From: Ignavibacteriales bacterium
GTDB taxonomy: Bacteria; Bacteroidota; Ignavibacteria; UBA10030; UBA8401
Length of the DNA: 64,000 nucleotides
Direction: 5' to 3'
NCBI GenBank assembly: GCA_037443785.1
Contig: JBBINR010000003.1
Location: 11,950-75,949, forward strand
The notes under the pieces were generated by a model. It ran no database searches. It was not told the origin of the DNA and saw only the letters and a program-made list of their open reading frames with translations. The position numbers and the translations under genes were made by a program. Below, piece after piece: positions 1,315 to 21,369 of this stretch (position 1 is the first letter of the stretch; every line of letters begins with the position of its first letter).

Positions 1315-1499
1315 TTCTCCTGTTGTGCGAACGGCGCTTCAAATAATAAAATGGTTACAACAACTCTCCCTGTTGTGTTGCACCGTCCGCACGGTTTCGA
1401 TTTCGTTTCCGAGTCGTGACCTGACGTTCTTTCGGAATAGCGAATCATACCTTCACCTTTACAATCGCTGCAGACTTCGATGAAAGAAATTTTATTCAC
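1305..1499 (-). CDS. Small zinc-ribbon protein (CxxC...CxxC)
   Basis: 64 aa with CSDCKGEG ... CGRCNTTG. Overlaps the portal stop by 4 nt, i.e. translationally coupled. Confidence 0.4.
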   Translation of the reverse strand: MNKISFIEVCSDCKGEGMIRYSERTSGHDSETKSKPCGRCNTTGRVVVTILLFEAPFAQQEKCN

Positions 1500-2650
1500 G
1501 GTAACTCACTTGCATTGATCGGCGTAAACAGTTTGTCACCTTGCTGAGGCGGAGTGAATCCAGCCTTTTTATAAACTTCATCTTCACGCATCGGAAGAAA
1601 TTTGTGCAGCACATCGATTGCCGCTGCATTCTTTTCTATATCCTGTTCTTCGGCAATGTTGAATTCAAACTTTACCGGAAGGTCATCGATTGCTGCGTCG
1701 GATTTATAATTCAACTTGTAATCGATCAGCAGCAATTGTTTCATCAGTGCTTCAACGCGGTTCATGTCCGTATAAAAAATATCGGCACTGACAAGTTTTA
1801 AGATTTCGATTGCCGCACGGCTGCCGCCGTTGTTCGGAAGTTCCGACGTATTCGCCTGCCCTAACATGGCAATAGAAATTTCTGCCTTGCGTTCATCGTT
1901 GAAATCTTTGAACTGCGTTCCGCCGCCTGCAGCTGCGATCTGATTCAATTTGAATTCGATCATGTCGTCAGTAACGAGGTAGTTATTCTTTACCGCATTC
2001 GCTGCCGCTGTTTCCGCTGCCGCTTGATTGTCGTCGGAGGTCCCTTTATTGATGATCTGCAAAATGCCTTTCAACTTTTTCAAATAGTTCGCATTCTCAA
2101 GCACCATGTCCCACCGCAAGATTTCAGGAATCATAACCGTGCGAAGCACACCGCCGCGCGGCAATGTTGTATAGGCATCAAAAATATATTCCGCTTGAAA
2201 TTCTGTTCTGCTGATTGCAGTGACAGTTCTGTCGGTTTTATTTTTAATGAGGAAGTGTGTGTTGCTGTAATCGAATTCATCCGGTTCAAAAAATTTTTCG
2301 ACAGAAAGGATATTACTGTCTTTTGCAGAAATAGTTTGCAGTTTTACAAGGAACGCACCATACAAGACCGTATTCAATTGTTTTTGAAGTATCGCATTGA
2401 TAGCCGGAGACAATCGTGTCTTCATCTCTTCCGCTTTTTTCTGAAACGTTGCGTCGCTCACGGTGAGATTCCACGAGAATGATGACAGCGCGCTATTGCG
2501 AGTTGTTGCATGACCGCTGATGCGAGGATTGGCAAAAAGCTGTTTGAGATATTTGAACATCACTTCCGTTGACCGCACCTTGTCGTTCGGTTCATCGGCG
2601 TTCTTGCATGCTGCGAAAAATTGGTCAAGCGTTGGGTAGAGTCGAGCCAT
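1496..2650 (-). CDS. Phage portal protein, Mu gp29-like (DUF935)
   Basis: About 385 aa immediately downstream of TerL. Start MARLYPTLDQFF at 2650 avoids overlap with the terminase. Overall similarity pattern matches the DUF935 portal family. Confidence 0.75.
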   Translation of the reverse strand: MARLYPTLDQFFAACKNADEPNDKVRSTEVMFKYLKQLFANPRISGHATTRNSALSSFSWNLTVSDATFQKKAEEMKTRLSPAINAILQKQLNTVLYGAFLVKLQTISAKDSNILSVEKFFEPDEFDYSNTHFLIKNKTDRTVTAISRTEFQAEYIFDAYTTLPRGGVLRTVMIPEILRWDMVLENANYLKKLKGILQIINKGTSDDNQAAAETAAANAVKNNYLVTDDMIEFKLNQIAAAGGGTQFKDFNDERKAEISIAMLGQANTSELPNNGGSRAAIEILKLVSADIFYTDMNRVEALMKQLLLIDYKLNYKSDAAIDDLPVKFEFNIAEEQDIEKNAAAIDVLHKFLPMREDEVYKKAGFTPPQQGDKLFTPINASELP

Positions 2651-2661
2651 GATAAAATTCC

Positions 2662-4350
2662 TTAATTGGTATAGACATCGTTGACCGGAACAGGCGGCGT
2701 TGATTTGCGTCCCGTAATTTTCCGGTCGTGAATAAATTCGTGCGCACAAATAATTGAATCCGGAGCGTCATCTTTTTTGTTTAACTTCACACCGGTGAAA
2801 GAAAAAAACTGAGCAAGGAACTTTTCGCCTTCCGGTGTCTTCGCAAATCCGGCAGGAAAAAAAACTTTGTCAGCTGCATACGCGCTTTGAAAATTTTTTG
2901 CAAGCTCGTCAACATTGTATCTTTTATATTCGATGTGCGGGAATGGCAACTTCTTTATTAAGCACCAGTTCCGAACATTGTTTGTCCAGTTGCTCTCTTG
3001 GTTCACGTTGCCGTCGAATCCGATATTCTTTACGTCGTGCGCTTTGCGCATGCGGAACACTTCATCCAATAATTTGTTGCTGTCCGCAAACGATCTGCAT
3101 AACGCTTCGGTGATGAAATAAGAATCCGTTGAGACAGAATATTTATAGACCGGCATCGCTGTCGTATCACCTTTCGATTTTTTTGAGAGGTTCGGGTCAA
3201 CCCACAACACACCGCGTGCATCGTTCGGTATCGATGTATATTCGTGATAGTGATCGCGCGTGAAGAAATCGCCTTCCGGAGGAATTGGATTTTGTTGGAA
3301 GTTCGCCTGCCAGTCACTTCCAGATTTCGGCTTCAACATTTCCTTCAGTTCGTTCTCGCTCATTGCAGAATATTTTTTGAACCATAACGAGAAGCCGTCG
3401 TATTGTTCTAACCGTGACACAGAATCTTTACTGAAGCTGACAACTTTAGAAAGTGTGGTGAATGTTTCGCGGTCAATCCATGCTTTGAACGATGTCACAG
3501 TCCATGAACGTGCAAGAATGCCTTGCTCTTGTTCAAGCGATAAACGATGCAGCGCGCCGGCTGTTGTAAAGTCGTTGCCAAGAATTAAGAATGTGCCGCC
3601 ATCGGAAAGAGATTGGAACGCTTCGGAAATTTTATCGATGCGTAGCTGCACTGCGTCGTTGCTGAATGACGATTCAAGTGTTTCGATGTCATCACCGAGA
3701 AGGAATTGCGGCCTGCCGAACAAACGAGTGTAACCGCGTAACGAACGACCTTCTGAAAATGATGCGATGTATTTCCATTCGTTCAATGCAGAAATTTTCG
3801 TCGAAGCCGATTTCTTTTTCTTTTTTCCATCGTTCATAAAAGAAAAATCTGCTGTTGCACGGAATCGGCATTGATCTGAGTTAGCTTCGGCGAATTCAAT
3901 TTTGAAATCTTCGCGGATGCGTTCATTGTCGGCGAGCAGCATAATGCAATCGCGCAAAATGTTTGCGGACTTCAAAATCGTTTCTGCATACGTTCCGGCA
4001 ATTTTTATTTTACCGCACAGCAGCATCCATAACAGCGTTGTTTTTCCTTTTGCCGTCTTACCGTGTTTTCGAGGTCCGAAAATTGTGTGCACGCCGGCAA
4101 CCTGCGCAACTTCACCGATGTAACCGTGCAACTCGCACGGCGGCGCGTAACTTTCATACATCGACGGCGGAAAATAATATTTATCGAACGCTTCATGCGA
4201 TGCGAACGCTTCTCGCAATCTTTTTTCCCGCGCTTGCGGTGTTCGTTCTGCATCGGTGAATGGCTGTACCTGCGACAACATCGCTGCAAGTTCTGCGTTC
4301 GCTTCAAACTGCGGGAAGGTATGCTGTATGTGTGAAAAAGTATTTTCCAT
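2662..4350 (-). CDS. Phage terminase large subunit
   Basis: Walker A GPRKHGKTAKGKTT, Walker B-like LLGDDIE, and C-terminal nuclease-like acidic motifs (WVDPN..GDTTAM, GFDGN); 562 aa. Confidence 0.9.
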   Translation of the reverse strand: MENTFSHIQHTFPQFEANAELAAMLSQVQPFTDAERTPQAREKRLREAFASHEAFDKYYFPPSMYESYAPPCELHGYIGEVAQVAGVHTIFGPRKHGKTAKGKTTLLWMLLCGKIKIAGTYAETILKSANILRDCIMLLADNERIREDFKIEFAEANSDQCRFRATADFSFMNDGKKKKKSASTKISALNEWKYIASFSEGRSLRGYTRLFGRPQFLLGDDIETLESSFSNDAVQLRIDKISEAFQSLSDGGTFLILGNDFTTAGALHRLSLEQEQGILARSWTVTSFKAWIDRETFTTLSKVVSFSKDSVSRLEQYDGFSLWFKKYSAMSENELKEMLKPKSGSDWQANFQQNPIPPEGDFFTRDHYHEYTSIPNDARGVLWVDPNLSKKSKGDTTAMPVYKYSVSTDSYFITEALCRSFADSNKLLDEVFRMRKAHDVKNIGFDGNVNQESNWTNNVRNWCLIKKLPFPHIEYKRYNVDELAKNFQSAYAADKVFFPAGFAKTPEGEKFLAQFFSFTGVKLNKKDDAPDSIICAHEFIHDRKITGRKSTPPVPVNDVYTN

Positions 4351-4535
4351 TAGTCGTTCACCGGATTGTTTGAATCGAACTCATCGTCTGAAAAAATATT
4401 GTCAGTCTTGCGCTTCGGAATTTTTCCGCTGAGTTTTTCCTGCGGCTGTATAAACTGGCACTCGCATTGCGCAAGAGTCTTGTTGCATCGTTCACAAATT
4501 TTTGTAAAGTCAGTTTCAATTATTATTTCTTCCAT
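4350..4535 (-). CDS. Small Cys-rich phage protein (zinc-ribbon-like)
   Basis: MEEIIIETDFTKICERCNKTLAQCECQF. Its TAA overlaps the TerL ATG (TAATG). Confidence 0.4.
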   Translation of the reverse strand: MEEIIIETDFTKICERCNKTLAQCECQFIQPQEKLSGKIPKRKTDNIFSDDEFDSNNPVND

Positions 4536-4595
4536 GTTGACCTTTGATTGAATAGAGCCTGCTGCGTGCGCAAACATGCAGCAGGCGTTGCAACG

Positions 4596-4856
4596 TTACG
4601 CGAAACTACGACCGCCTTCTGCGACACCGCCCTCTCTAAAATGACTTACTTCCGGAAGCATTGCGTTGATCACTTGATGAGTAATATTTCGCAGTCCGGA
4701 ACAGATGATACGTTGATTGCGAAGTTCCTGTGTGCATGCCAGCAACAATAAGCCTTGATGTTCCGCAGATGTTTCCGCCGCGACAAGCTGCGCTTGAAGC
4801 ATCGTGAGTTCATCACGCAAAATTATTCGAGCGATTGCTTTCAAAATATTTTTCAT
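4596..4856 (-). CDS. Hypothetical phage protein
   Basis: 86-aa ORF in the co-directional early-gene string; its start overlaps the stop of the next gene. Confidence 0.4.
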   Translation of the reverse strand: MKNILKAIARIILRDELTMLQAQLVAAETSAEHQGLLLLACTQELRNQRIICSGLRNITHQVINAMLPEVSHFREGGVAEGGRSFA

Positions 4857-5119
4857 AGTGCGCCCTCCGATAAATATTTTTCCGGTATCTCTTCTTTGTG
4901 CAGCGCATAGTGCAAACGGATTGCATAGTCGATCATTGCAGTGAGCGATGAGAATGTTTCCACATCGTTACCATAGACAGTTCCGTTCAATATGAAACAC
5001 CAACCGCACAGCACATCGTCATACCAAAAATTTTCGATGAAAGGATATTGCTCTGCAAGTTCTTCGTACAGACGTTCGATGCTGATAAGAAGCGACTGAC
5101 GTTTCTCTTCGATGTTCAT
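4853..5119 (-). CDS. Hypothetical phage protein
   Basis: 88-aa ORF, 4-nt overlap coupling with the downstream gene. Confidence 0.4.
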   Translation of the reverse strand: MNIEEKRQSLLISIERLYEELAEQYPFIENFWYDDVLCGWCFILNGTVYGNDVETFSSLTAMIDYAIRLHYALHKEEIPEKYLSEGAL

Positions 5120-5282
5120 TTGCGTTGCCCTTCCATTTTACTGAATGCACGTTCAAGAATTGCTTTCGCTCGTGGGTTGTATGATTCTGCGAAGCGTGAC
5201 AGTTGATGCTTTGGAATAAAATCTTTTCCGTTATCAATTTTGCTTTGTTGCGGAACTTGCTGCATTGCCATTTTTTGATTCT

Positions 5283-5480
5283 TCATTTTTGTTCCTCCGA
5301 AGTATGTTGATGAAGTTCAGTTTCTTCTAATTCACCGTATGCAAAATTCAACGATTCAATGTCTTGCTCGGCAATTTGCAATAAGTAACCGCTGCTCAAT
5401 ACAACCGCATTGCCTTCAACGCGAACGATCTTTCTACCTATCAATGCTTCTTTGGCTCCATCGCAAAGTTTTGTTGCCAT
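5283..5480 (-). CDS. Hypothetical phage protein
   Basis: 65-aa ORF, co-oriented early gene. Confidence 0.3.
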   Translation of the reverse strand: MATKLCDGAKEALIGRKIVRVEGNAVVLSSGYLLQIAEQDIESLNFAYGELEETELHQHTSEEQK

Positions 5481-5512
5481 AAATATTTTCTCCGATTAGT
5501 TAGTGATGAAAA

Positions 5513-5917
5513 TTATTTTGAAAACTTACTTGCAGGGAAAATGTAAATTCCCTTTTTGTCAGAATATTGTTTCTCTGTTAAACCATATCTCAATTTCTCA
5601 TTCAAAAATTCAACAGCGTCTTGTTTCGAGTTGAACTTCTTTACATATCCGCGTTGCGTTAAAACAAATTCATAACCGTTGAGAGAAATTCCGTGCGGGT
5701 TCCGAGCGATAATAAATTTTTCTTTTGGCACTCGCGGAGTGATCAGACCTTGTTCGATGCAGAATTGTTTTAGTGCCGCAACTTTTTTCTTTGAGATGTA
5801 GTCGAATCGTTTGTTGATGAAGTTTGATACATCGGCGCGGGTAATTTCTTTGCCGGTTTTTGAAAAAACGAAATCTTTCAAATTTGCGTTATAAGCGATT
5901 TTCATTGTTTTTTCCAA
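5513..5917 (-). CDS. Hypothetical phage early protein
   Basis: 134-aa ORF directly downstream of the cro/ner-like gene. Confidence 0.45.
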   Translation of the reverse strand: MEKTMKIAYNANLKDFVFSKTGKEITRADVSNFINKRFDYISKKKVAALKQFCIEQGLITPRVPKEKFIIARNPHGISLNGYEFVLTQRGYVKKFNSKQDAVEFLNEKLRYGLTEKQYSDKKGIYIFPASKFSK

Positions 5918-5972
5918 TAGTTAGTGGTAGTAATGTTTGGGAATTCCCAAAATCATGTTTGGAACGCGATTT

Positions 5973-6150
5973 TTACGCAGCCTTCTCGAACCGCTCGACC
6001 TCTTTTTTCATGATTTTGGCAATTCTCTTTCTATGCTTTAGTCCGGGGCGCTGTCCGGACAAAATCATGTGTGCGTAAACTTCGCTCACTCCGAGCCGCC
6101 TTCCGATCTCCGCAGAATTAAATAGCTTTGCAACGTTGTTGACTTTCATT
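5973..6150 (-). CDS. Cro/Ner-like HTH DNA-binding protein
   Basis: About 59 aa. The segment AEIGRRLGVSEVYAHMILSGQRPGLKHRKRIAKIM is helix-turn-helix-like. The gene is divergent from the cI-like repressor. Confidence 0.55.
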
Positions 6151-6171
6151 TAATTGTCTCCTATGTTTGTT

Positions 6172-6251
6172 TAGTGTTAAAAACGTTTATTACTCTAAAC
6201 CAATATAGTGAAACTCGCTACTTTTGTCAAGCAGAAAATAGTGATTATCGA
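6172..6251. promoter_or_regulatory. Candidate operator region of the prophage switch, with ATAGTGA-N3-TCG direct repeats
   Basis: TAGTG motif at 6172, 6206 and 6239, about 33 bp apart. Copies two and three share ATAGTGAnnnTCG. The region sits between divergent cro-like and cI-like genes. Confidence 0.35.
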
Positions 6252-6260
6252 AACTTTTTT

Positions 6261-6680
6261 ATGAGCGATATAACCCCTGAAAAATTAGAAGCGTTCGGTC
6301 ATTCTCTTGTGGGGAAAGGTCACGGCTGGCAAAAAAAATTTGCTGATAAACTTAAAATTCGTTCAACGCAAGTATCAAAGATGTTATTGGGTCTTGAACC
6401 GATTGGTTCTAAGATGCAGCTGCGATTGTATGAACTTGGCTACGCTGATGAAGAAGAGTTGATTGCGCGCGACGCAATCGCACATTATTCCTCTCAAAAA
6501 ATAAAAACTGCATCAGAGTGGCTTGAGCGTGAAGCGATACGTTCAAGGAATACAGAAATCTCAGAACAGATTCGCTTACTTTGCGACATCGTAAAAATTT
6601 TAGAGGTGAAACCGAAAGAGGAACTTAAACGTGCAAAAGAATTATTGCGTGCCGGAGGATTTCAAAACTCAAACCACTAA
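6261..6680 (+). CDS. cI-like prophage repressor (HTH; no S24 peptidase domain)
   Basis: N-terminal HTH-like GHGWQKKFADKLKIRSTQVSKMLLG. Divergent from the cro-like gene. No Ser-Lys autocleavage motifs. Confidence 0.55.
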   Translation: MSDITPEKLEAFGHSLVGKGHGWQKKFADKLKIRSTQVSKMLLGLEPIGSKMQLRLYELGYADEEELIARDAIAHYSSQKIKTASEWLEREAIRSRNTEISEQIRLLCDIVKILEVKPKEELKRAKELLRAGGFQNSNH

Positions 6681-6686
6681 CATACT

Positions 6687-7073
6687 ATGGAAGAAAAAAT
6701 AATTTATGAACACCGCGATATTAAAGTTTCAAATGTTCGCGCTGTTTTCGGCGATAAAACTTTTTCTATGTCGAATATAACTTCGGTGATGTTTATAAAA
6801 ATTCCGAAGGTAATACGGTTGTATGGTGTGACAATAATATTTTTTGCCATTACAATATACTACGTCTCGAAAGACAGCAGCGCAACATGGCAAATACCGA
6901 CCGCAATCTTTTTAGCTCTCATCGGCGCATTACTGATTATTTTTGATCGACAAAAATACGCAGTGAGAATTGGAACTGCAGGCGGTGAAATTAACGCGAT
7001 CATTTTGAAAAGCGAATCAGAAATAAAATCCATCGTTGATTCACTCAATGAAGCAATCATAAAGCGTGGCTAA
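6687..7073 (+). CDS. Small two-TM membrane protein co-transcribed with the repressor (candidate superinfection-exclusion or abortive-infection protein)
   Basis: Starts 7 nt after the repressor stop. Two hydrophobic helices (VIRLYGVTIIFFAITIYYV and AIFLALIGALLIIF) are flanked by soluble ends. Confidence 0.5.
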   Translation: MEEKIIYEHRDIKVSNVRAVFGDKTFSMSNITSVMFIKIPKVIRLYGVTIIFFAITIYYVSKDSSATWQIPTAIFLALIGALLIIFDRQKYAVRIGTAGGEINAIILKSESEIKSIVDSLNEAIIKRG

Positions 7074-7207
7074 TTTACCGTCACATCAAAATTATAAACT
7101 TCGTAAGATAATCGTCTTCACCGTTCTAAGTCTCAGCTGCGTCATCGTGTGGCTCTCAGTGATCTTTGATTGGTGAAGAAATGTAAATTGTCAAAGAACA
7201 AAAATTT

Positions 7208-7615
7208 TTATTGCTGCGTTGAATCGTACACAACATTGAATTCGACATACGCCGCCGCAAAGTCTGAGTAGTAACCGTCGAACTTCACCGGCTCCGCATT
7301 CTGCTGAATCATTACATCGGAAATTTCATTTACGATCTTTTCAACCTTCTCGCATAACTCAATCGCATCGAGCGCGCTGTAGATTGGATTGTCTTCACCG
7401 CCTGCGCAGGCAAAGAATGTGAACTTCGATTTTCTGATCACACTTCCTTTTTGTGAAGTTGTCCCGGGTTCCGGGTCAATATAAATCCACACGCACGGTG
7501 TCATACTCGGCATCGTACCGAATTTTCCAAAGTCAACATCAACCTTTGCAGCGGTCATCAATGCATGCTGCTGCAGTGCCGTTCGTATCGCGCTTGCCGC
7601 TTCTCGCAGTATCAT
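7208..7615 (-). CDS. Hypothetical phage protein (possible head-tail joining protein)
   Basis: 135 aa. It is the last gene of a 3-gene minus-strand cassette whose members overlap by 4 nt. Confidence 0.45.
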   Translation of the reverse strand: MILREAASAIRTALQQHALMTAAKVDVDFGKFGTMPSMTPCVWIYIDPEPGTTSQKGSVIRKSKFTFFACAGGEDNPIYSALDAIELCEKVEKIVNEISDVMIQQNAEPVKFDGYYSDFAAAYVEFNVVYDSTQQ

Positions 7616-8112
7616 CGTTTTTTCTCCATCTTGATTTTCGCAATTTCCTCATTGTAAATTTTTATCACGTCATCATTGGTTGCACCCGGTGCATAACGCC
7701 GGATGATGCGCGCGATGATTTCAGCGTCTGCTCGGTTCATGTGCGCTTCAAGTTCAACGCTTTGCAGGAACTGCCGAATGCGCGACATCTTGTAAAGAAT
7801 GCTGACCCGCGAATTCAATTTCATTTTTGGATTCATCTCAAGCATTCCGGCACAGAGCGAGAGCTGCGATTTCATCAAGCCGAGATCGTCATTTTCATCA
7901 CGCATCATTTGTGCTGCGTTTAACTGTCCCTTCGATGTGTTTTTCAGGAGTTCGGATTTTTCAGCGTGCTTCTGCAGCGCGTAACGCGCTTGGTGAATCT
8001 TCACGTGAAATTTTTTAGAAAGGTCCTGCAGCGTCGCTTCAGGATGATTGCTTTTCCAAATGGATATTTTACTCTGCAGTTGATCGGAAATAAAAATTCT
8101 TTTCTTATTCAT
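7612..8112 (-). CDS. Hypothetical phage protein with HTH-like N-terminus
   Basis: Start at MNKKRIFISDQ (ATG at 8112), 5 nt after the upstream stop. The N-terminal region HPEATLQDLSKKFHVKIHQARYAL is HTH-like. Confidence 0.45.
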   Translation of the reverse strand: MNKKRIFISDQLQSKISIWKSNHPEATLQDLSKKFHVKIHQARYALQKHAEKSELLKNTSKGQLNAAQMMRDENDDLGLMKSQLSLCAGMLEMNPKMKLNSRVSILYKMSRIRQFLQSVELEAHMNRADAEIIARIIRRYAPGATNDDVIKIYNEEIAKIKMEKKR

Positions 8113-8563
8113 TCTCGTAGAGTCCTCCCATCGTTCCAACTTTCGCCGGAGTTGTTGATGTTGAACCGCCTGCATGTTGCGCAAGAGTTTTCATTGCATT
8201 ATCATAATTCTTGGTGATGCGAGAATTATATTCCGGCGAGGTTGCTTCTAATTTTACGCTTGCAAGATATTCAAGAATCCATGCATACGGCTGTTGCATC
8301 CAATCCGGCGCTGTCGTAAACGTTCCGCACTTATCAATAATCATCGTCTCAGTATTTGCAGCGAACTTTCCAAAGTTCGTTTCATCGGCAAGAACTTTTG
8401 CGGCAGACTTGCTGAGCAGTTCTTTGATGTCGTTGTAGGTATAGAGCATGACGTCCTTTCTAAAATGATAATGCAAACATACCGCACGCAGAAAAAAAAA
8501 GTCGGGTATATGCGGATATACTCTATAATAATTTTCCCGCGTGATTAAATTTGCATCGTTCAT
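8105..8563 (-). CDS. Hypothetical phage protein
   Basis: 152-aa ORF, first gene of the divergent cassette. Confidence 0.45.
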   Translation of the reverse strand: MNDANLITRENYYRVYPHIPDFFFLRAVCLHYHFRKDVMLYTYNDIKELLSKSAAKVLADETNFGKFAANTETMIIDKCGTFTTAPDWMQQPYAWILEYLASVKLEATSPEYNSRITKNYDNAMKTLAQHAGGSTSTTPAKVGTMGGLYENE

Positions 8564-8593
8564 TTAGCAACCACATACACAGGAGAAAATTTT

Positions 8594-9121
8594 ATGAAGT
8601 TAAAAGATTTTGTTGCGCTGTTGAAAAAACTTTTGCCGGACAAGGTGAAAGAGATCGAGGAAGTTGAAAAAACAATTTCCGATGAACCGCCGACACCTCC
8701 AACTCCGAAAAAGGAACCGGAGACGGAAACGATTCCGCCAGCGCTGCAGCGGTTCATCGATTCTCAAACGGAAGCAATAAAGAATTTGTCGCAGCAGGTG
8801 AAAGACCTGAATGAGAAATCACAGTCGAATGAAAAAAATCAGCTGCAGGAAAAAATCGACACCGTGATTACGAAGGCAAAAGCTGATAAAAAAATTGCAG
8901 CGAAAGATGACGTGTCTGAAAAAATGTATCGCACGTTACTTGAAGCCAACTTCGATAATGCAAAAAAAGTGATCGAAGTATTGCCGGTCATCGGTGAAGC
9001 TGCAGCAACAAAGACGAATGTCCAAACCGCCGTGTCTCGCGGTACGCTCGGTGCAACGCAGACGGAACTCGGCAAAAAAATTGCAGAGTTCAGCGGCACT
9101 GCACAGACAAAAACTGAATAA
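8594..9121 (+). CDS. Phage scaffolding protein (putative)
   Basis: AGGAGA RBS upstream. Charged, helix-rich, with a Pro-rich linker (PPTPPTPKKEPETE). Sits immediately upstream of the major capsid gene. Confidence 0.5.
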   Translation: MKLKDFVALLKKLLPDKVKEIEEVEKTISDEPPTPPTPKKEPETETIPPALQRFIDSQTEAIKNLSQQVKDLNEKSQSNEKNQLQEKIDTVITKAKADKKIAAKDDVSEKMYRTLLEANFDNAKKVIEVLPVIGEAAATKTNVQTAVSRGTLGATQTELGKKIAEFSGTAQTKTE

Positions 9122-9154
9122 CCATTTTTTCATTATCACATAAAGGAGTAACAC

Positions 9155-10120
9155 ATGAATATAGCTCAAGTGTCATCGCTCAGCGGTCGCGGTCAAGGTT
9201 TACTGGAAGTCATGATTCAGGAAGCCCCGCTTCTGCAAACAGCGGAGTTCAAGCTGGAAGGAAGTTCGCATCTTGTTGTCACCGGTCGAAGCAAAACGAC
9301 CGACAGTGCTGCGCGCAAAGAAGGTGATCCCGGCGCAAAAAATACACCGACACCAAATACCACTGCGCGCAATCTCGCGCTCTACACACGCAACGTGTAT
9401 ATCGACGATGTCCGTCGTAACGACGTTGCTGCCGGTCTGCAGTCTGTTGAAGGATTGCGCTCGTTCGGCGATACACAGCTTCGCGTTGAAGCGAAAGGTC
9501 TCGCGTCTGAACTTGCGAATGAAATCATTAACGGTATCGATGCAAACGACGTCGGCGGTGTGTATCACATGCTCGGCATCAATCAGTTTGTAAAGGATGC
9601 TGCTGCTGCCGGACAAACAGCGCGCTTCGGTTTTACCGCTGCGCAAATTGCCGCGTTGAACAAAGAGGTAACACTGCAGCTAAATACCGCTGCAAACCAA
9701 GATGCATTTGTTGAATTGCTGGAACAAGAGATCGTGAATGTTCCGGGTGCGAATGCACTTATCATGAGCGGTCCGCTTTTCGCGCGTCTTGGAACAATTG
9801 CGCGACGGCTCGGCGCTGCAGGCGAAACACGAAACAGCTTCGGCGTTTCGGTGAAGACGTTTGCAAACGTTCCGATGATTCCGGTTGCAGGATTGGCAAT
9901 GGATGAAACATACGATGCCGTTGTCAACGCAGGCTCTATCTTCATCGTTCGCTTTGCTGAAGATACCGGCGTGCAGATCGACACGAACAGCGGTATCGCA
10001 TTCAAAGACTTCGACGAAGTCGAATCGATTCCTGCCGGCATGTCGCGCATTCAATCGTTCGTCAACCTGTCAATCCGTGAATTGAATTCTATTCGCCGAT
10101 TGTCACGCATTACGCTGTAA
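9155..10120 (+). CDS. Major capsid protein
   Basis: 321 aa, follows the scaffold, AGGAG RBS, and is followed by a strong hairpin. Confidence 0.65.
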   Translation: MNIAQVSSLSGRGQGLLEVMIQEAPLLQTAEFKLEGSSHLVVTGRSKTTDSAARKEGDPGAKNTPTPNTTARNLALYTRNVYIDDVRRNDVAAGLQSVEGLRSFGDTQLRVEAKGLASELANEIINGIDANDVGGVYHMLGINQFVKDAAAAGQTARFGFTAAQIAALNKEVTLQLNTAANQDAFVELLEQEIVNVPGANALIMSGPLFARLGTIARRLGAAGETRNSFGVSVKTFANVPMIPVAGLAMDETYDAVVNAGSIFIVRFAEDTGVQIDTNSGIAFKDFDEVESIPAGMSRIQSFVNLSIRELNSIRRLSRITL

Positions 10121-10165: not shown

Positions 10166-10196
10166 GTCCCGTTGTTGACTCCGACAACAACGGGAC
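10166..10196 (+). terminator. Perfect 12-bp stem-loop directly after the major capsid gene (terminator or attenuator)
   Basis: GTCCCGTTGTTG-actccga-CAACAACGGGAC; no U-tract. Confidence 0.4.
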
Positions 10197-10231
10197 GGGA
10201 TAGTGCGGTGAGAACGAAGAAAGGAAACTTT

Positions 10232-10450: not shown

Positions 10451-10471
10451 TTATTTTTTGAAGGAGTAATC

Positions 10472-10927
10472 ATGTCATATTTTAGAATGCAAGTGAAGTC
10501 AATTAAGATCGTCCAGGCTGCGGATACGACAGACTTCACAACCGCCGCTGCATTCGCAGCAGGCACAGACCTCGGCGATCTAAAAGGTACGCCGTTCGCA
10601 AAAGTCAACATCGACCCGAAAACAGTTGATACACAGGCTGGTAAGAAAACGCTCGGCAAAACAGCAAAGGTTGAAGTTAACGTTGTGATGCCGGTCGATG
10701 AAACACTTCAAACGACACTTCTTGGCTTTGAAGGGAAAAACGTTGCGCTGCTTTGCACGCCAAAAGGTGCAGTGAGTGCTGATAATCCTTATCTGGTTAT
10801 CAAAAACTTTCCGTTGCAACACGGCACCGAAGTCCTTGTCGGTGATGCTTCAACGGTAAAATTGATGGGCGAAGTTCCGGTATATGATGAAACGGATATT
10901 ATCGACCGCCTCGCTGCATTGGTATAA
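10472..10927 (+). CDS. Major tail (tail tube) protein, putative
   Basis: 151 aa; position between capsid and the G/GT chaperone-tape measure block. Confidence 0.45.
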   Translation: MSYFRMQVKSIKIVQAADTTDFTTAAAFAAGTDLGDLKGTPFAKVNIDPKTVDTQAGKKTLGKTAKVEVNVVMPVDETLQTTLLGFEGKNVALLCTPKGAVSADNPYLVIKNFPLQHGTEVLVGDASTVKLMGEVPVYDETDIIDRLAALV

Positions 10928-11004
10928 AAATTCAAACACCCCAACAGAGAAAATAGCCGTGTCCGGTGCATCGGCGCGGCTCTTGAGTTTAACAGGAGAA
11001 CTCG

Positions 11005-11373
11005 ATGAGCAAACAAAAACAGAATATCGTTCACATCAACGGTAAACAATTCACTATTGCGCAAACGGCAAGCAGCAAGCGATTACTCAAAGTCGCAAAA
11101 GTCTTCGGCGCGAAAACTCTCACAGAAGCACATACAATGTTCATCGGTGTATCGAATGATGAAGCACAAAAAATCTTCGACGCACTGCTTCTTAATATTA
11201 TTACTGACGATGAACGGCTTACTATTCTACTCGGCGCTCTTATTATAGAACCGCTTAGCCCGGATGATATTGAAAAGTTTGATGATGTCTTTCAATTAGG
11301 AGAAATGCTTACAAATTTTTTTACGAACTACACTCCCGGTTCGAAGAACTTGCAGAGTGTTACGCAGGAATAG
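11005..11373 (+). CDS. Tail assembly chaperone (G-like)
   Basis: 122 aa immediately upstream of the tape measure. The -1 frame stays open to 11636. Confidence 0.55.
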   Translation: MSKQKQNIVHINGKQFTIAQTASSKRLLKVAKVFGAKTLTEAHTMFIGVSNDEAQKIFDALLLNIITDDERLTILLGALIIEPLSPDDIEKFDDVFQLGEMLTNFFTNYTPGSKNLQSVTQE

Positions 11374-11636
11374 CAGGCGATGCAAACGGCGAATCGGTTA
11401 TTGAACAACCGATTGAAGAATCACTGAGAGAGATCGTAAATTTTTGTGCTAATGGAATTTTTACCGAGTGGGAAAAATGTTGGAATGAACGAAGCGTCGG
11501 TGATCTGCTTGCGTTCTACATTGAACAGAACCAATTCATCAAAGAATCATTCTCGCATGTAACATCAGGCGGGAAAAAAGAATTCAAGGAATTACTCATC
11601 GACCTTTTTGAAGTGCTTATACGACGCAGATTTTAA
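11005..11636 (+). CDS. Frameshift-extended chaperone isoform (GT-like), predicted
   Basis: Fusion of the 11005 frame with the -1 frame 11316-11636 (…AGDANGESVIEQPIEES…LIRRRF). Confidence 0.35.
11316..11322 (+). promoter_or_regulatory. Candidate -1 programmed ribosomal frameshift slippery site (T TTT TTT)
   Basis: A run of 7 T (X XXY YYZ) in the zero frame, 50 nt before the chaperone stop. The -1 frame is open from 11286 to the TAA at 11634-11636, two nt before the tape-measure ATG. Confidence 0.45.
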
Positions 11637-11639
11637 TTC

Positions 11640-13973
11640 ATGGAAACGATAAAAATAAAAATAGACATCGACGGCACGCAAGTCAATGGAACACTTGCGC
11701 TGACAACGGATAATTTGAAACGGCTTGTGCAGCAATCCGATTCACTTTCGTCTTCCGGAAAATCTGCGTTCAAAAGCTACAGAGATAATATCGCCAACAT
11801 CGGCTTTGCAATTGACGGCGCTCGAAGAATATTTGATGTCATCAATGGAACACTCGGCGACAGCGTTCGCGCGTATCAAGAATCTGAAAATGCTTCAACG
11901 AAATTGACACAGGCGTTGAAGTCGCAAGGTATTTACAGCGAGATACTTATTGATGACTTGAAAAAGTTTGCTGCAGAGCGTCAACGTCTTACCGGAATTG
12001 ATGATGATGCGATCGTTTCCATTATGGGACAGCTCACAGCGATGGGTTTACAGGGGAAGGCGTTGAAAGATGCGGTTGTCGCCGTTCAAGATTTAAGCAC
12101 GTTGATGGACGGCGACATGCAAGGTGCTGTTCGCGTTATTGCCGATGCGTTCGACGGCAACGCCGGAATGTTGAAACGATACATAAAAGGTTTAGATGAA
12201 GCGGACATCAAAGAGCGTGGAACGATCTCAATCATTGAGCAGCTGACAAAAGCTGTCGGCGGACAAGCGGAGGCGATGGGAAATACCGGAGCCGGTGCAA
12301 TTAAAAAATTTGAAGCTGACTTAGGCGATGCAAAAGAATCTGTCGGCGAAATGATTTCACTCGCACTTATTCCGCTTGTGAATGTTGTTGATTCAATGGC
12401 ACGTGCATTTAACGGCCTTGAACCTCCGGTAAAGAATACTGCGATTGCGATTGGCTTTGTTGCCGCCGCTGCATACGCTCTTCAATCGGTCGGCATTATT
12501 GCATTCTTAGGCAAAGTTACAGTTGCCGTAAAAGGTATTTCGTTTGCGTGGACTGGATTAAGCGCTGCAATTGCGATTACCAATGCTCTTATCGGTGGTG
12601 TTGCCATTGCCGCATTATCCGTTTTCGGATTGCTTATTGAAAAGTTTTATCTCGACTGGAAATTGAAACAGAAAGAGATTGAACACATTGCAAGTTCATC
12701 TGCAGCGATGACTCAGGAAACAATCGATAAAATCAATAAGCTGCCGTCGATAAAACTCAAAATTCAAAGCCTTGATTTTGAGATTAAGGAATCGAAGGCA
12801 CGGCTTCAGGAACTTTACGACTATGCAGAAAAACTTCGTGCCGATAGTGCGAGCGATCAAGACATTGCAAAAGCCGATGCAGCGCGAGATGCAGAAGTTG
12901 AGCGATTGAAGCGATACGAAGATACAAAGACATCGATCATTACCGATTCTGAAAAGAAGCGCAAGGCAAATGCCGGAGTGATTGCTACTGAACTTGAAGA
13001 GCTTCGTGTTAAAACGATGCAGGATGGTTACGCAAAGCACAAAGCACAAGCTGAACTGGAATATGCTGAGGCTCTTAAAAAACTTAATGAGCGTTTGAAG
13101 AAAGAAGAAATCCTGCAGGAAGACTATACAAAGTTTCTTGCGCTCGAACAAAAGAAACGTGATGACATCGTCGCACCGCCGCTCAAGAAAGTAAAAATAA
13201 AATCGACTGCCGATGCCGAAGCTGAGGAGACCGAGAGAAACAAAAAAGCACTCGACAAACGCGTGAAGGATACTGGCGGCGCGTTAAAAAAAATTGATGA
13301 AGCGAAACTCGACGCACTTGATAACAGTGCCGCTATCGACAAAAAAAATGCTGAAGACGATGATGCAAATAAGGAAGCGCAGCAGAAGGCAACGGAACAA
13401 AACATCCTTGCTGCAACTCAGCAATATGATACGAGCAAATCGTTTGCTGAAAACATGAAAGATATATCGCGCGCGAACATTAAACGCATCATCGCCGAAG
13501 CTGTTGCAACGCAACTGGCGAAAGTCATTTCGATGATTCCCTTTCCGCTTAATATCGTTGCTGCACCTGCTGCCGGTATTGCCGTTCAAGCGATGATTGA
13601 AAAGATCGTACCGAAATTTGCTATTGGCGGATTGATCGGCGGACAGAGACACGCCCAAGGCGGAACACTCATTGAAGCTGAAGAGGGTGAATTCATTATG
13701 AACCGTGTCGTTACTCAAAAGCATTTCAATTTTCTCTCAGCTCTCAACGCAGGTAAAATTACGCTGCCAAAATTTTCCACCGGCGGCGTTGTTGGAAGTG
13801 TTGTTGCGACGGTATCGAATGCGGGAACTGATTTGAAAAGAGAATTTAAGACTCTCACAAAAGCTATCATTAACAATCCGCCGATTGTTAAAAATAGTTT
13901 TGATACCGACTGGACGCGGATGCGCAAGGGTGAACGAAAACTTCAACGCGTGAAAGCAGCATACGCATTATGA
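11640..13973 (+). CDS. Tail tape measure protein
   Basis: 777 aa with long coiled-coil and charged repeats, central hydrophobic segments, and C-terminal GG-rich region. Position after G/GT. Confidence 0.85.
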   Translation: METIKIKIDIDGTQVNGTLALTTDNLKRLVQQSDSLSSSGKSAFKSYRDNIANIGFAIDGARRIFDVINGTLGDSVRAYQESENASTKLTQALKSQGIYSEILIDDLKKFAAERQRLTGIDDDAIVSIMGQLTAMGLQGKALKDAVVAVQDLSTLMDGDMQGAVRVIADAFDGNAGMLKRYIKGLDEADIKERGTISIIEQLTKAVGGQAEAMGNTGAGAIKKFEADLGDAKESVGEMISLALIPLVNVVDSMARAFNGLEPPVKNTAIAIGFVAAAAYALQSVGIIAFLGKVTVAVKGISFAWTGLSAAIAITNALIGGVAIAALSVFGLLIEKFYLDWKLKQKEIEHIASSSAAMTQETIDKINKLPSIKLKIQSLDFEIKESKARLQELYDYAEKLRADSASDQDIAKADAARDAEVERLKRYEDTKTSIITDSEKKRKANAGVIATELEELRVKTMQDGYAKHKAQAELEYAEALKKLNERLKKEEILQEDYTKFLALEQKKRDDIVAPPLKKVKIKSTADAEAEETERNKKALDKRVKDTGGALKKIDEAKLDALDNSAAIDKKNAEDDDANKEAQQKATEQNILAATQQYDTSKSFAENMKDISRANIKRIIAEAVATQLAKVISMIPFPLNIVAAPAAGIAVQAMIEKIVPKFAIGGLIGGQRHAQGGTLIEAEEGEFIMNRVVTQKHFNFLSALNAGKITLPKFSTGGVVGSVVATVSNAGTDLKREFKTLTKAIINNPPIVKNSFDTDWTRMRKGERKLQRVKAAYAL

Positions 13974-18815: not shown

Positions 18816-19693
18816 TTATTCAAGAGAATTATATTGAGATTGACTTTGATGCGGTGAAGAAATTTCGTTCACTCACTATAACATCCACGGCTGAAATTAC
18901 ACTCAGCAAGTTAATGCTAAAGAATCAGAACACCGGAACGTATGAGAGCGTTGATGCTGCTATTTATGTTGATGGCAATGAGGCGCACCTCCCTTTTTAT
19001 TTTCACACTGGCACGATTGAGATTATTCCCGATCTGCTCGGAAGCGGATTGATGATTGAGGGTGTCGGGTTAAATAATATTAGCAATGTTGTTGTTGATG
19101 ATCTACCGGTTCAGGACGTTGATTATTCCGGTGTTGTCGCCGGTGAAGCAAAGGAACGCGCTGACGGTGATGAAGCCTTGCTATCGGCGATTAATGCAGA
19201 AGCTACAGCGCGGTCAGTTGCGGATATAAATGAAGCGTCTGCTCGTGCTGCGGCGGATTCTACCCTTCAATCCGCTATCGATGCAAAGATTAATTACTGC
19301 CAACTTCCGATGGCATTTGAAAGCGGGTTCGGTGCGAGTGTAACGCGCTATGTTACTCCGGCATATTATAATGTTTCTTCGGTGAGCGGTGATATGCGTT
19401 ATCCTGTTGGTGACCGTGATATTACAATTCATGCTTTCACAATTTTAGGAAGACCAGCAACGTCGCCGGCACAGAATTATACGCACACATTTACTTTGCG
19501 AGTGAACGGTGTTGATACTGCAATGTCCGGGACAATTACAGTAACGCCGGCAGGTGGAATTGGTTATTATGAATTGACGGTAACTACCGGTGCACCCATT
19601 ACTGTTGCAGCTGGTTCATGGATAGATATTAAATGTGTCATCGCTGGTAATGGATTTATTAAGTTCAGCGGTAATATTTTGATAGGGATTTAA
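18812..19693 (+). CDS. Tail fibre or collar protein
   Basis: 293 aa with an Ala-rich coiled segment (EATARSVADINEASARAAADSTLQSAIDAKI). Last phage gene. Confidence 0.45.
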   Translation: MIIQENYIEIDFDAVKKFRSLTITSTAEITLSKLMLKNQNTGTYESVDAAIYVDGNEAHLPFYFHTGTIEIIPDLLGSGLMIEGVGLNNISNVVVDDLPVQDVDYSGVVAGEAKERADGDEALLSAINAEATARSVADINEASARAAADSTLQSAIDAKINYCQLPMAFESGFGASVTRYVTPAYYNVSSVSGDMRYPVGDRDITIHAFTILGRPATSPAQNYTHTFTLRVNGVDTAMSGTITVTPAGGIGYYELTVTTGAPITVAAGSWIDIKCVIAGNGFIKFSGNILIGI

Positions 19694-19788: not shown

Positions 19789-19826
19789 TCCTCATTTAAA
19801 GTGACCTCAATCCTCATTTAAAGTGA
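19789..19826. repeat. Two copies of 16-bp direct repeat TCCTCATTTAAAGTGA, 22 bp apart, at the prophage-host junction
   Basis: Seen directly at 19789-19804 and 19811-19826. Confidence 0.6.
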
Positions 19827-19975: not shown

Positions 19976-21325
19976 ATGAAAAAAATATTGCTCCTGCTCG
20001 TTGTAACGTCGTTTCTTTATTCGCAAACACCAACTCAATACGCAAAAGAAAACGCCCGTCATTCCGAAAAATGGGTAACGAATGGAATTATTTACGAAGT
20101 ATTTCCACGAGTTTTTTCCAAAGAGGGAAATTTTGCCGGCGTTGAAAAGAAAATTCCTGAAATTAAAAAACTTGGTGCAACAATTCTCTGGCTGATGCCG
20201 ATTCAACCTGTCGGAATTGAAAAGAGAAAAGGGACGCTTGGAAGTCCATACTCCATTAAAGATTACTATGGCATCAATCCTGAATACGGAACGCTTGACG
20301 ATTTCAAGAAATTAGTCAGCGTAGCACACGACAACGGTTTGAAAATTATTATCGATCTCGTGGCGAATCACACATCGTGGGACAGCAAATTATTTACGGA
20401 ACATCCCGAATGGTTTACAAAAGACAGCGCGGGAAAATTTATTCCGCCGGTTGCCGATTGGAGTGATGTTGTCGATCTGGATTATTCACAGCCTGGATTG
20501 CGTCGTTACATGATTGAGATGTTGAAATACTGGGTGAGAGATATTGGTATTGACGGATATCGATGCGATGTTGCCGAAATGGTGCCGACAGATTTCTGGA
20601 ATGAGGCGCGCGCTGCGCTGGATTCTTTGAAACCAATCGTAATGCTTGCCGAAGGACAATATCCTGAACAACATCTGAAAGCATTCGATCTCACATATTC
20701 ATGGAATTTTTATCACGACATGGGTGATGTCATCAAAGGAAGCAAAACCGCAGCCGAAATGGATTCGATCCTTTATCGCGAATCGTTGGCATATCCGAAA
20801 GGATCTCTGCGCATGCGTTTCAGCTCCAATCACGATGAGAATGCGTGGGATAATCCCGATGTGGTAAAATTTGGCGAGGATGGAGCGAAACTTGCGGCTG
20901 TTCTTACGAACACATTTCCCGGAGTTCCGCTTCTCTATAACGGGCAAGAAATCGGCAACGACAAGAAATTAGGATTATTTGAAAAATTTGAAATTGATTG
21001 GACAAAAGGAAAAGCGTGGAGAGAATTTTATACAAAATTATTTTCGATCAGAAAAAATAATTCGTCGCTTGCAACAGACGACTATCAATGTGTAAAAAAC
21101 AATCGGCCAGATCAGGTGTATGCATTTATCCGCACAAACGGAAAAAATACAATTCTTGCGGCATTTAATTTCTCCAGCAGCGAGCGAACAGTACATCTTA
21201 AACTTCCGAAAGCATTTCCGTCATTACGATTTGTCAACGCCTTTACAGGGAAAAAAATAGCATATAAAAATATTGAAAAAATCACTCTGCCGAAATTCGG
21301 CTACAGAGTATTTGTTGTGGAATAA
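19976..21325 (+). CDS. Secreted alpha-amylase family GH13 enzyme
   Basis: Signal peptide; GH13 regions DLVANH, GIDGYRCDVAEM, MLAEG, FSSNHDE. Confidence 0.85.
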   Translation: MKKILLLLVVTSFLYSQTPTQYAKENARHSEKWVTNGIIYEVFPRVFSKEGNFAGVEKKIPEIKKLGATILWLMPIQPVGIEKRKGTLGSPYSIKDYYGINPEYGTLDDFKKLVSVAHDNGLKIIIDLVANHTSWDSKLFTEHPEWFTKDSAGKFIPPVADWSDVVDLDYSQPGLRRYMIEMLKYWVRDIGIDGYRCDVAEMVPTDFWNEARAALDSLKPIVMLAEGQYPEQHLKAFDLTYSWNFYHDMGDVIKGSKTAAEMDSILYRESLAYPKGSLRMRFSSNHDENAWDNPDVVKFGEDGAKLAAVLTNTFPGVPLLYNGQEIGNDKKLGLFEKFEIDWTKGKAWREFYTKLFSIRKNNSSLATDDYQCVKNNRPDQVYAFIRTNGKNTILAAFNFSSSERTVHLKLPKAFPSLRFVNAFTGKKIAYKNIEKITLPKFGYRVFVVE

Positions 21326-21369
21326 CCCCCCCTGTCCTTCGGACATCTCCCCCCTTGAAGGGGGGGGAG
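21326..21369 (+). terminator. GC-rich double hairpin (C7 ... TGTCC-ttc-GGACA ... CTCCCCCC-loop-GGGGGGAG) after the amylase gene
   Basis: Complementary arms seen directly; no U-tract. Confidence 0.4.

Follow-up and report, generated by a model that had tools for sequence, protein, structure and literature searches.

A candidate programmed -1 frameshift on a run of seven T upstream of the tape-measure gene of a Bacteroidota prophage

Overlapping reading frames upstream of a tape-measure gene

We analysed a stretch of 64,000 nucleotides (nt) from the contig JBBINR010000003.1 of an Ignavibacteriales bacterium (assembly GCA_037443785.1, positions 11,950 to 75,949), in the following called the window. 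In particular, we characterized two overlapping reading frames that lie directly upstream of the gene for a phage tape-measure protein. The first of them, gene G, encodes a putative tail assembly chaperone of 122 amino acids (aa). The second, here called T, is read in the -1 frame relative to G. From the comparison with related loci we conclude that a programmed -1 ribosomal frameshift on the heptamer U_UUU_UUU probably provides both G and a longer fusion protein, GT, of 210 aa. An arrangement of this kind, the G/GT frameshift, is described as conserved among long-tailed double-stranded DNA phages (Xu, Hendrix and Duda 2004, as cited in PMC5009743). Unless stated otherwise, all features given below are located on the plus strand.

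Gene G extends from an ATG at position 11005 to a TAG at 11371-11373, which is the end that an earlier note on this DNA had assigned to it. Its start codon is preceded at a distance of 5 nt by the Shine-Dalgarno (SD) sequence AGGAGA (10994-10999). The -1 open reading frame (ORF) covers positions 11286 to 11636, as also read previously, and is bounded by a TGA at 11283-11285 on its 5' side and by a TAA at 11634-11636 at its end. It comprises 116 sense codons, and the final 29 codons of G fall within it. A plausible start codon is missing from the -1 ORF: ATG, GTG and TTG are absent from codons 1-109, and the first of them is a GTG at 11613 (codon 110).

The gene that follows (11640-13973, 777 aa) has no recognisable SD sequence. 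Between the stop of the -1 frame and its ATG we found 3 nt (TTC, 11637-11639) rather than the 2 nt that had been given before. Its assignment as tape-measure gene held: the product matches phrog_27166 (tail length tape measure) with E = 1.1e-15, and tblastn searches returned proteins annotated as tape measures in phages of Rhodobacter and Dinoroseobacter with E ~4e-11. The homologous proteins of two related loci, L001 and L005 (see below), carry the Pfam domain TMP_3.

The proposed shift site is the slippery heptamer T_TTT_TTT (U_UUU_UUU in the mRNA) at 11316-11322, within the overlap of the two frames. The zero-frame codons at the run are AAT (11314-11316), TTT (11317-11319), TTT (11320-11322) and ACG, encoding N, F, F and T. 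The run thus has the X_XXY_YYZ phase that a tandem -1 slip requires, in agreement with the earlier note, and is located at a conserved N/D-F-F motif. A second in-phase heptamer, A_AAT_TTT (11313-11319), overlaps with it. The T segment, i.e. the part that would be translated after the shift, spans positions 11322-11633 and encodes 104 aa. The predicted GT fusion (11005-11636) joins 11005-11322 to 11322-11636, such that the junction would read ...EMLTNFF|YELHSR... and the protein would have a mass of about 24 kDa. Among the predicted tryptic peptides, FDDVFQLGEMLTNFFYELHSR would contain the junction and be specific to GT, and FDDVFQLGEMLTNFFTNYTPGSK would be specific to G.

A family of related loci

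Relatives of the two frames were obtained in several steps. A word-indexed search with the GT fusion returned the window's own protein and one homolog with 47% identity. An exhaustive hidden Markov model search with a two-sequence profile of G provided three further homologs, and a subsequent profile search increased the family to 14 members. For ten related loci from independent assemblies the DNA was fetched. These loci were obtained from NCBI, JGI, ENA, Logan and IMG/VR, i.e. from different samples and pipelines, and represent six independent sequence types with G identities of about 18-47%. Two of the ten are re-assemblies of L001, and two are cut off past the shift site. The phage of L001 was recovered in three samples (L001, L002 and L004), and L003 is an independent assembly that is identical to the window across the shift site. 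The other loci are L005, a clade formed by L006 and L009, and a clade of six members (L007, L008, L010, L011, L012 and L013) that we call the T9 clade owing to its run of nine T.

Other searches provided no additional relatives. For cultured phages, a DNA search with the tail module gave no match, and tblastn with GT gave only a spurious hit (E = 0.1). Scans of genome contigs and of metagenome contigs with the GT alignment yielded no confirmed relative, and the same scan of viral contigs returned only a duplicate of L001. A sequence search of the PDB gave no match for G or GT. As judged by these comparisons, G and GT of the window are by sequence not members of any annotated chaperone family, and their domains appear to form a chaperone family of their own, for which neither Pfam nor PHROGs has an entry.

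The two-frame architecture was found in all eleven loci, window included. The G homologs have lengths of 96-122 aa, and the -1 frame is open over approximately 105-145 codons wherever the contig permits. In contigs that reach the tape-measure start, the -1 frame ends at distances ranging from an ATGA overlap with this start to 178 nt upstream of it. The length of the conceptual GT is conserved, with 202-210 aa in the seven relatives that have a complete G start and T end; for L013, in which the called G begins later, 192 aa were obtained. In nearly all related loci the gene callers left the T region uncalled. The assignment to the G/GT arrangement by the earlier note is in agreement with these data, since the relatives keep the -1 frame as far as their contigs extend, and eight of the ten keep the T run.

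In the window the T-frame TAA and the tape-measure ATG are in the same frame with a single codon (TTC) between them, while relatives from the T9 clade have an ATGA overlap at this place. Ribosomes that terminate in the T frame may thus be linked to initiation at the tape-measure gene. That both genes share a frame in the window is probably a coincidence, since L001 differs in this respect.

Comparing homologs also allows to judge whether the interrupted frame could be an artefact. Homopolymers are error-prone in some sequencing chemistries, such that the true gene might be one continuous G-T ORF with eight or six T at the site, or else a decaying pseudogene. A fused single ORF, the outcome by which the earlier note would have recognised a sequencing indel, was found in none of the ten related loci. 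Given that all eleven loci from various samples and pipelines are split into two frames, that an independent assembly reproduces the window exactly and that both frames are under purifying selection (see below), we consider an indel in sequencing or assembly highly improbable.

Conservation of the -1 frame as protein

Next to an artefact, the -1 ORF could be a non-coding spacer that lacks stop codons by chance. The sequence is AT-rich, and in-phase heptamers of the type XXXYYYZ occur at 0.64% per codon in the genes of the window, so that about 0.18 of them are expected in the overlap of 29 codons. The heptamer by itself is therefore not significant; its significance comes from the conservation in the relatives. 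For the open frame the situation is different. With a -1-frame stop rate of 5.75% per codon in the window genes, 116 open codons are expected with a probability of only about 0.001.

The conservation of the -1 frame, for which the earlier note had suggested a check, is seen at the protein level. The T segments of the window and of L001 share 34% identity with a BLASTP E value of 6e-20. When all nine frame combinations of these two sequences were compared, the cognate pair scored 155 and the remaining pairs at most 45, i.e. protein conservation was confined to the T frame. A multiple alignment of T provided the motif FCxxG....W..LW..W.(Y/F)(G/S)(D/E)(V/L) with an invariant F..W...W core, followed by a conserved basic or hydrophobic C-terminus. 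Within the T9 clade the ratio of nonsynonymous to synonymous differences per site (pN/pS) was 0.36-0.67 in the T frame compared to 0.8-2.0 in the two other frames. Purifying selection acts on both the G and the T frame. An origin of the open frame by chance is already refuted by the protein conservation and the pN/pS values, and we regard its probability as practically negligible.

Additional information is contained in the overlap of G and T. In the T9 clade the overlap has a nucleotide identity of 85% versus 63-69% in the G body and in the part that encodes T only. No variation is seen in the T run, and the 36 nt that follow it are conserved to 85% compared to about 65% elsewhere. Such a pattern is the signature of two frames that are constrained at once. 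Since the overlap exceeds both flanks in conservation, translation in the -1 frame appears to begin upstream of the G stop, which argues for a frameshift and not for reinitiation.

This bears on the possibility that T is produced on its own, i.e. by termination-reinitiation or from a non-canonical start close to the G stop, such that no frameshift would be involved. Such a scenario is suggested by L006, for which the gene caller found an ORF of 87 aa starting at an ATG that overlaps the G stop as ATGA; at the corresponding place the window has an ATA (11370-11372). The equivalent position is, however, a CTG in L009, the close relative of L006, and a GTA in L001. A separate start of T is thus not a conserved feature. 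Furthermore, the -1 ORF of the window lacks any of the three start codons before codon 110, in every locus the -1 frame is open well before the G stop, reaching back as far as the T run in each case, and, in addition to the conserved overlap, the length of GT is kept. A separate T protein is therefore very unlikely in our view. Overall, because the -1 frame, the domain and the T run are conserved and no locus is fused, the sequence comparisons appear to exclude a sequencing indel and a chance ORF, and largely exclude an independent initiation of T.

The T run in related loci

An in-phase T run is present in eight of the ten related loci, with seven T in L001 and L005 and nine T in the six loci of the T9 clade. 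In all of these the first in-phase heptamer is T_TTT_TTT, and it is found at the D/N-F-F codons with which the last helix of G ends. The run is thus located at a shared D/N-F-F motif in three lineages beyond that of the window, two with seven T and one with nine. In the T9 clade the nine T are followed by a G in an invariant manner (e.g. positions 3897-3905 of L010), such that T_TTT_TTT and the T_TTT_TTG known from phage P2 are both in phase.

Between the window and L001, synonymous divergence has reached saturation, with 0.75-0.80 synonymous differences per site, and the codons TTT, AAT and GAT are each used in only about 65% of the cases in the phage. For this reason, it is unlikely that four deep lineages have kept T at all three synonymous positions by neutral drift (about 0.27 per lineage).

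The clade of L006 and L009 has five T instead. Its codons are GAT TTT TGG (T_TTT_TGG; 4306-4312 in L006, GATTTTTGG in L009), and the -1 frame is still conserved from there on (...F LDRLRAEC...). This points to a non-canonical shift site in the clade, for example a slip of the P-site tRNA on U_UUU, or to another route of T expression.

Sequence elements around the shift site and predicted structures

For -1 shifts the stimulatory spacing of SD-like elements was reported to be 9-14 nt upstream of the site (PMC5009743). Within gene G of the window, an SD-like AGGAG at 11298-11302 is located 13 nt 5' of the heptamer and thus falls into this range, which makes it a candidate 5' stimulator. For SD-like matches of at least 5 nt at the spacing of the AGGAG, the background frequency is 5.6% of positions. 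L001 and all but one of the six T9-clade loci have a comparable motif; L005, L007, L006 and L009 lack it. The internal AGGAG as stimulator is only suggestive.

Clear SD sequences of the AGGAG type precede G as well as the 151-aa gene upstream of it (GAAGGAG, 10462-10468), despite the placement of the genome in the Bacteroidota by its IlvD protein. Many members of the Bacteroidota make little use of SD sequences. The clear SD usage in the window bears on the question whether the internal AGGAG could stimulate a frameshift.

An AlphaFold model of G, based on the alignment of 14 sequences, was obtained with a mean predicted local distance difference test (pLDDT) score of 80 and a predicted template modelling score of 0.71. 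It begins with a beta-hairpin, after which six helices follow; for the 12-16 zero-frame residues after the F-F motif disorder is predicted. In the model of GT a long helix crosses the junction into the residues encoded in the -1 frame. The T part of this model was predicted from a single sequence and has a low confidence (pLDDT 44-72). Fold matches to known chaperones were weak. The label chaperone for G comes from its position and the gene architecture, together with this weak fold resemblance.

Proposed mechanism and comparison with known systems

We propose the following mechanism. Most ribosomes would translate from the ATG at 11005 to the TAG at 11373 and produce the G chaperone of 122 aa. 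A minority would slip back by one base while two tRNA-Phe are placed on UUU UUU within U_UUU_UUU (11316-11322). Both tRNAs would pair again with identical triplets one base further 5', and reading would resume in the -1 frame at UAC (11322-11324) until the UAA at 11634-11636. The resulting GT of 210 aa would contain the G domain at its N-terminus and the T domain of 104 aa at its C-terminus. The function of G and GT can be described by analogy with phage lambda: many copies of G and few copies of GT, the latter with their G part, would coat the tape-measure protein that is encoded just downstream, and the major tail protein would be brought in by the T domain (PMC5009743). A fixed frequency of slipping would then set the ratio of G to GT that tail assembly requires. 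We infer that the ribosome is the slipping machine; the efficiency of the slip, the protein-protein interactions and any role of the upstream AGGAG are proposed on the same footing. U_UUU_UUU is a known -1 shifter of modest efficiency in E. coli (PMC5009743). A moderate efficiency fits the low fraction of GT that such systems need, with a G:GT ratio of about 30:1 in lambda (PMC5009743).

Several points weigh against this interpretation. G and GT of the window have no Pfam or PHROG match at E <= 1, and among the relatives the sole match to either database is a weak one of a single member to phrog_1613 (E = 0.009). The neighbouring 151-aa gene is a candidate tail tube gene by its position alone. 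The frameshift itself is a prediction from the sequence. The site is a homopolymer, on which slippage of RNA polymerase is possible as well and would give the identical protein. The clade of L006 and L009 lacks a canonical heptamer, such that the rules for the site are not uniform across the family. Finally, a downstream stem or pseudoknot, for which the earlier note had recommended to search, was neither statistically supported nor conserved in single-sequence and consensus folds. In the window a stem of 8 bp (CCGGUUCG/CGAAUCGG, 11336-11395) with a loop of about 44 nt is predicted to begin 13 nt past the heptamer. Its z-score is -0.9, and single-sequence folds of the loci ranged from -0.8 to -2.2. 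The starts of the stems vary between 4 and 14 nt past the site across loci. Consensus folds of two clade alignments were either negligible (-5.2 kcal/mol) or consisted of invariant pairs that show no covariation. Searches of the window for Rfam families and for tRNAs returned nothing.

By analogy with phage P2, the missing downstream structure would be no argument against a frameshift, since E/E+E' of P2 shifts at TTTTTTG without such a structure. For phage tail frameshifts downstream structures have been described as rare, and the P2 site needs none (PMC3091744). The T-run site of P2 is also decoded by tRNA-Phe, and its T_TTT_TTG occurs exactly in the T9-clade relatives as second in-phase heptamer. 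P2 differs in being a myovirus, and its products are smaller (91 and 142 aa). In the window, ACG comes after the T_TTT_TTT, and no sequence similarity between the two systems was detected.

The slippage of RNA polymerase deserves a closer look. If the polymerase added one U on the T7 run in some of the mRNAs, GT would arise from standard translation and the products would be the same. The site is a pure homopolymer, a downstream stimulator for ribosomes was not detected, and in the largest related clade the run of nine T is long enough for efficient slippage of the polymerase. Runs of nine T slip efficiently with bacterial RNA polymerase in vivo, which is exploited by Thermus dnaX, whereas T5C5 without context features provided no detectable slippage (PMC5009743). 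The window thus shares a homopolymer as recoding site with dnaX of Thermus thermophilus and with insertion sequence elements, which use runs of nine A or T, and its relatives carry such a run. However, with only seven T the window stays below the 9-nt runs for which efficient slippage is documented, and L006 and L009 keep a conserved -1 frame with only five. The run is furthermore always in the X_XXY_YYZ phase, which is of relevance for ribosomes and not for the polymerase, yet the F-F codons also fix this phase. In the T9 relatives transcriptional slippage may well be at work. The seven T of the window and the clade with five T argue, at the level of the sequence, that the family relies at least in part on ribosomal slippage. 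For the window, slippage of the polymerase is the main rival, which we consider unlikely.

In this family the site has drifted between five (T_TTT_TGG), seven and nine T at one fixed D/N-F-F position, and the output could therefore also be generated by different mechanisms in sister clades: by a ribosomal slip in the P-site only or with near-cognate pairing on five T, by a tandem ribosomal slip on seven T and largely by RNA-polymerase slippage on nine T. We consider this rather unlikely. If it were true, the window would be an intermediate at which both mechanisms contribute. The internal SD-like element might then assist in a lineage whose clear SD sequences are unusual for Bacteroidota.

Returning to ribosomal frameshifting as the preferred reading, the closest model is G/GT of lambda, for which a -1 frameshift at G_GGA_AAG was described (Levin, Hendrix and Casjens 1993; Xu, Hendrix and Duda 2004, 2013 and 2014; as covered in PMC5009743). 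As in lambda, two overlapping ORFs are located directly 5' of the tape-measure gene, the second one in the -1 frame and devoid of a start. The sizes of the products are similar (about 120 aa for G and 210 aa for GT), and the arrangement is kept despite a very low sequence similarity. In difference to lambda, the slippery site of the window is U_UUU_UUU with tRNA-Phe in both sites, the proteins have no detectable homology to annotated G/GT families, and the host belongs to an uncultured Bacteroidota lineage. By analogy, the locus would work like G/GT of lambda and E/E+E' of P2.

A further system for comparison is dnaX of E. coli, where a -1 frameshift occurs at A_AAA_AAG with a 5' SD-like element and a 3' stem-loop. 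As proposed for the window, the -1 shift takes place on a homopolymeric heptamer, and the window has an SD-like sequence in the stimulatory range. In the window this element is putative and not universal in the family, a 3' stem-loop is unsupported, and the biological role is a different one.

The arrangement itself is ordinary and widely conserved among long-tailed phages; the chaperone family is unannotated in databases. The finding leaves the current understanding of tail assembly unchanged. It is of value for annotation, given that gene calling leaves some 270 nt empty and overlooks the predicted GT of 210 aa in the window prophage and in nearly all relatives. In addition, a Bacteroidota-infecting lineage with a Mu-type portal would join the phages that keep the G/GT frameshift. 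The natural U_UUU_UUU site with its variants of five and nine T at the same codon position could be used as a small natural experiment in which the ribosomal and the transcriptional kind of slippage are compared, and is as such a modest curiosity.

Prophage and genomic context

Upstream of the tail genes the window encodes a major head protein (phrog_212) and, on the opposite strand, a Mu-type portal (PF06074). Rightward of about 19.97 kb it consists of ordinary chromosome, with genes for an alpha-amylase and a GH2 protein as well as ilvD, mrdA and rodA. The IlvD protein of the window is 83-87% identical to proteins of metagenome-assembled genomes from uncultured Bacteroidota and 'Chitinophagaceae'. 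Because the phage genes adjoin ordinary chromosome and because of the IlvD similarity, the element is a prophage or prophage remnant in the genome of an uncultured member of the Bacteroidota. The G/GT pair likely belongs to a prophage of the siphovirus type with a Mu-type portal.

Directly 5' of G an ORF of 151 aa is found (10472-10927). The gene order makes it a candidate for the major tail (tube) protein, i.e. for the expected binding partner of the T domain. It has no Pfam or PHROG match, and a word-indexed search with its product returned only the protein itself. In five loci of the T9 clade (L007, L008, L010, L011 and L012) a Laminin_G_3 protein of about 397 aa is encoded two genes upstream of G, followed by an ORF of 77-115 aa. 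The region of the tail tube thus differs between the clades although G/GT is homologous, since the window has only the 151-aa candidate there.

The head module (1496-10120) is split by strand. The minus strand encodes the Mu-type portal, a putative terminase and the products of three small genes (7208-8563), and the plus strand a scaffold-like protein, the major capsid protein and the complete set of tail proteins. L001 (1-9200) has an identical layout. About 47 nt past the major-capsid stop (10120) a perfect inverted repeat of 12 bp, GTCCCGTTGTTG ... CAACAACGGGAC (10167-10198), is found that lacks a T tail. Located between head and tail genes, it might act as an attenuator or as a hairpin for RNA stability.

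Further downstream, an exact direct repeat of 15 nt (CCTCATTTAAAGTGA) occurs in two copies that are 22 nt apart (19790-19826), where 0.25 matches are expected by chance. The repeats lie in the gap between the last phage-like ORF, which ends at 19693, and the alpha-amylase gene of the host (19976). They may mark the end of the prophage or be binding sites of a recombinase or transposase, the latter being relevant since the portal is of the Mu type. Right after the alpha-amylase ORF, which ends at 21325, runs of seven C, six C and eight G occur within about 40 nt (21326-21367); these are probably a GC-rich terminator hairpin.

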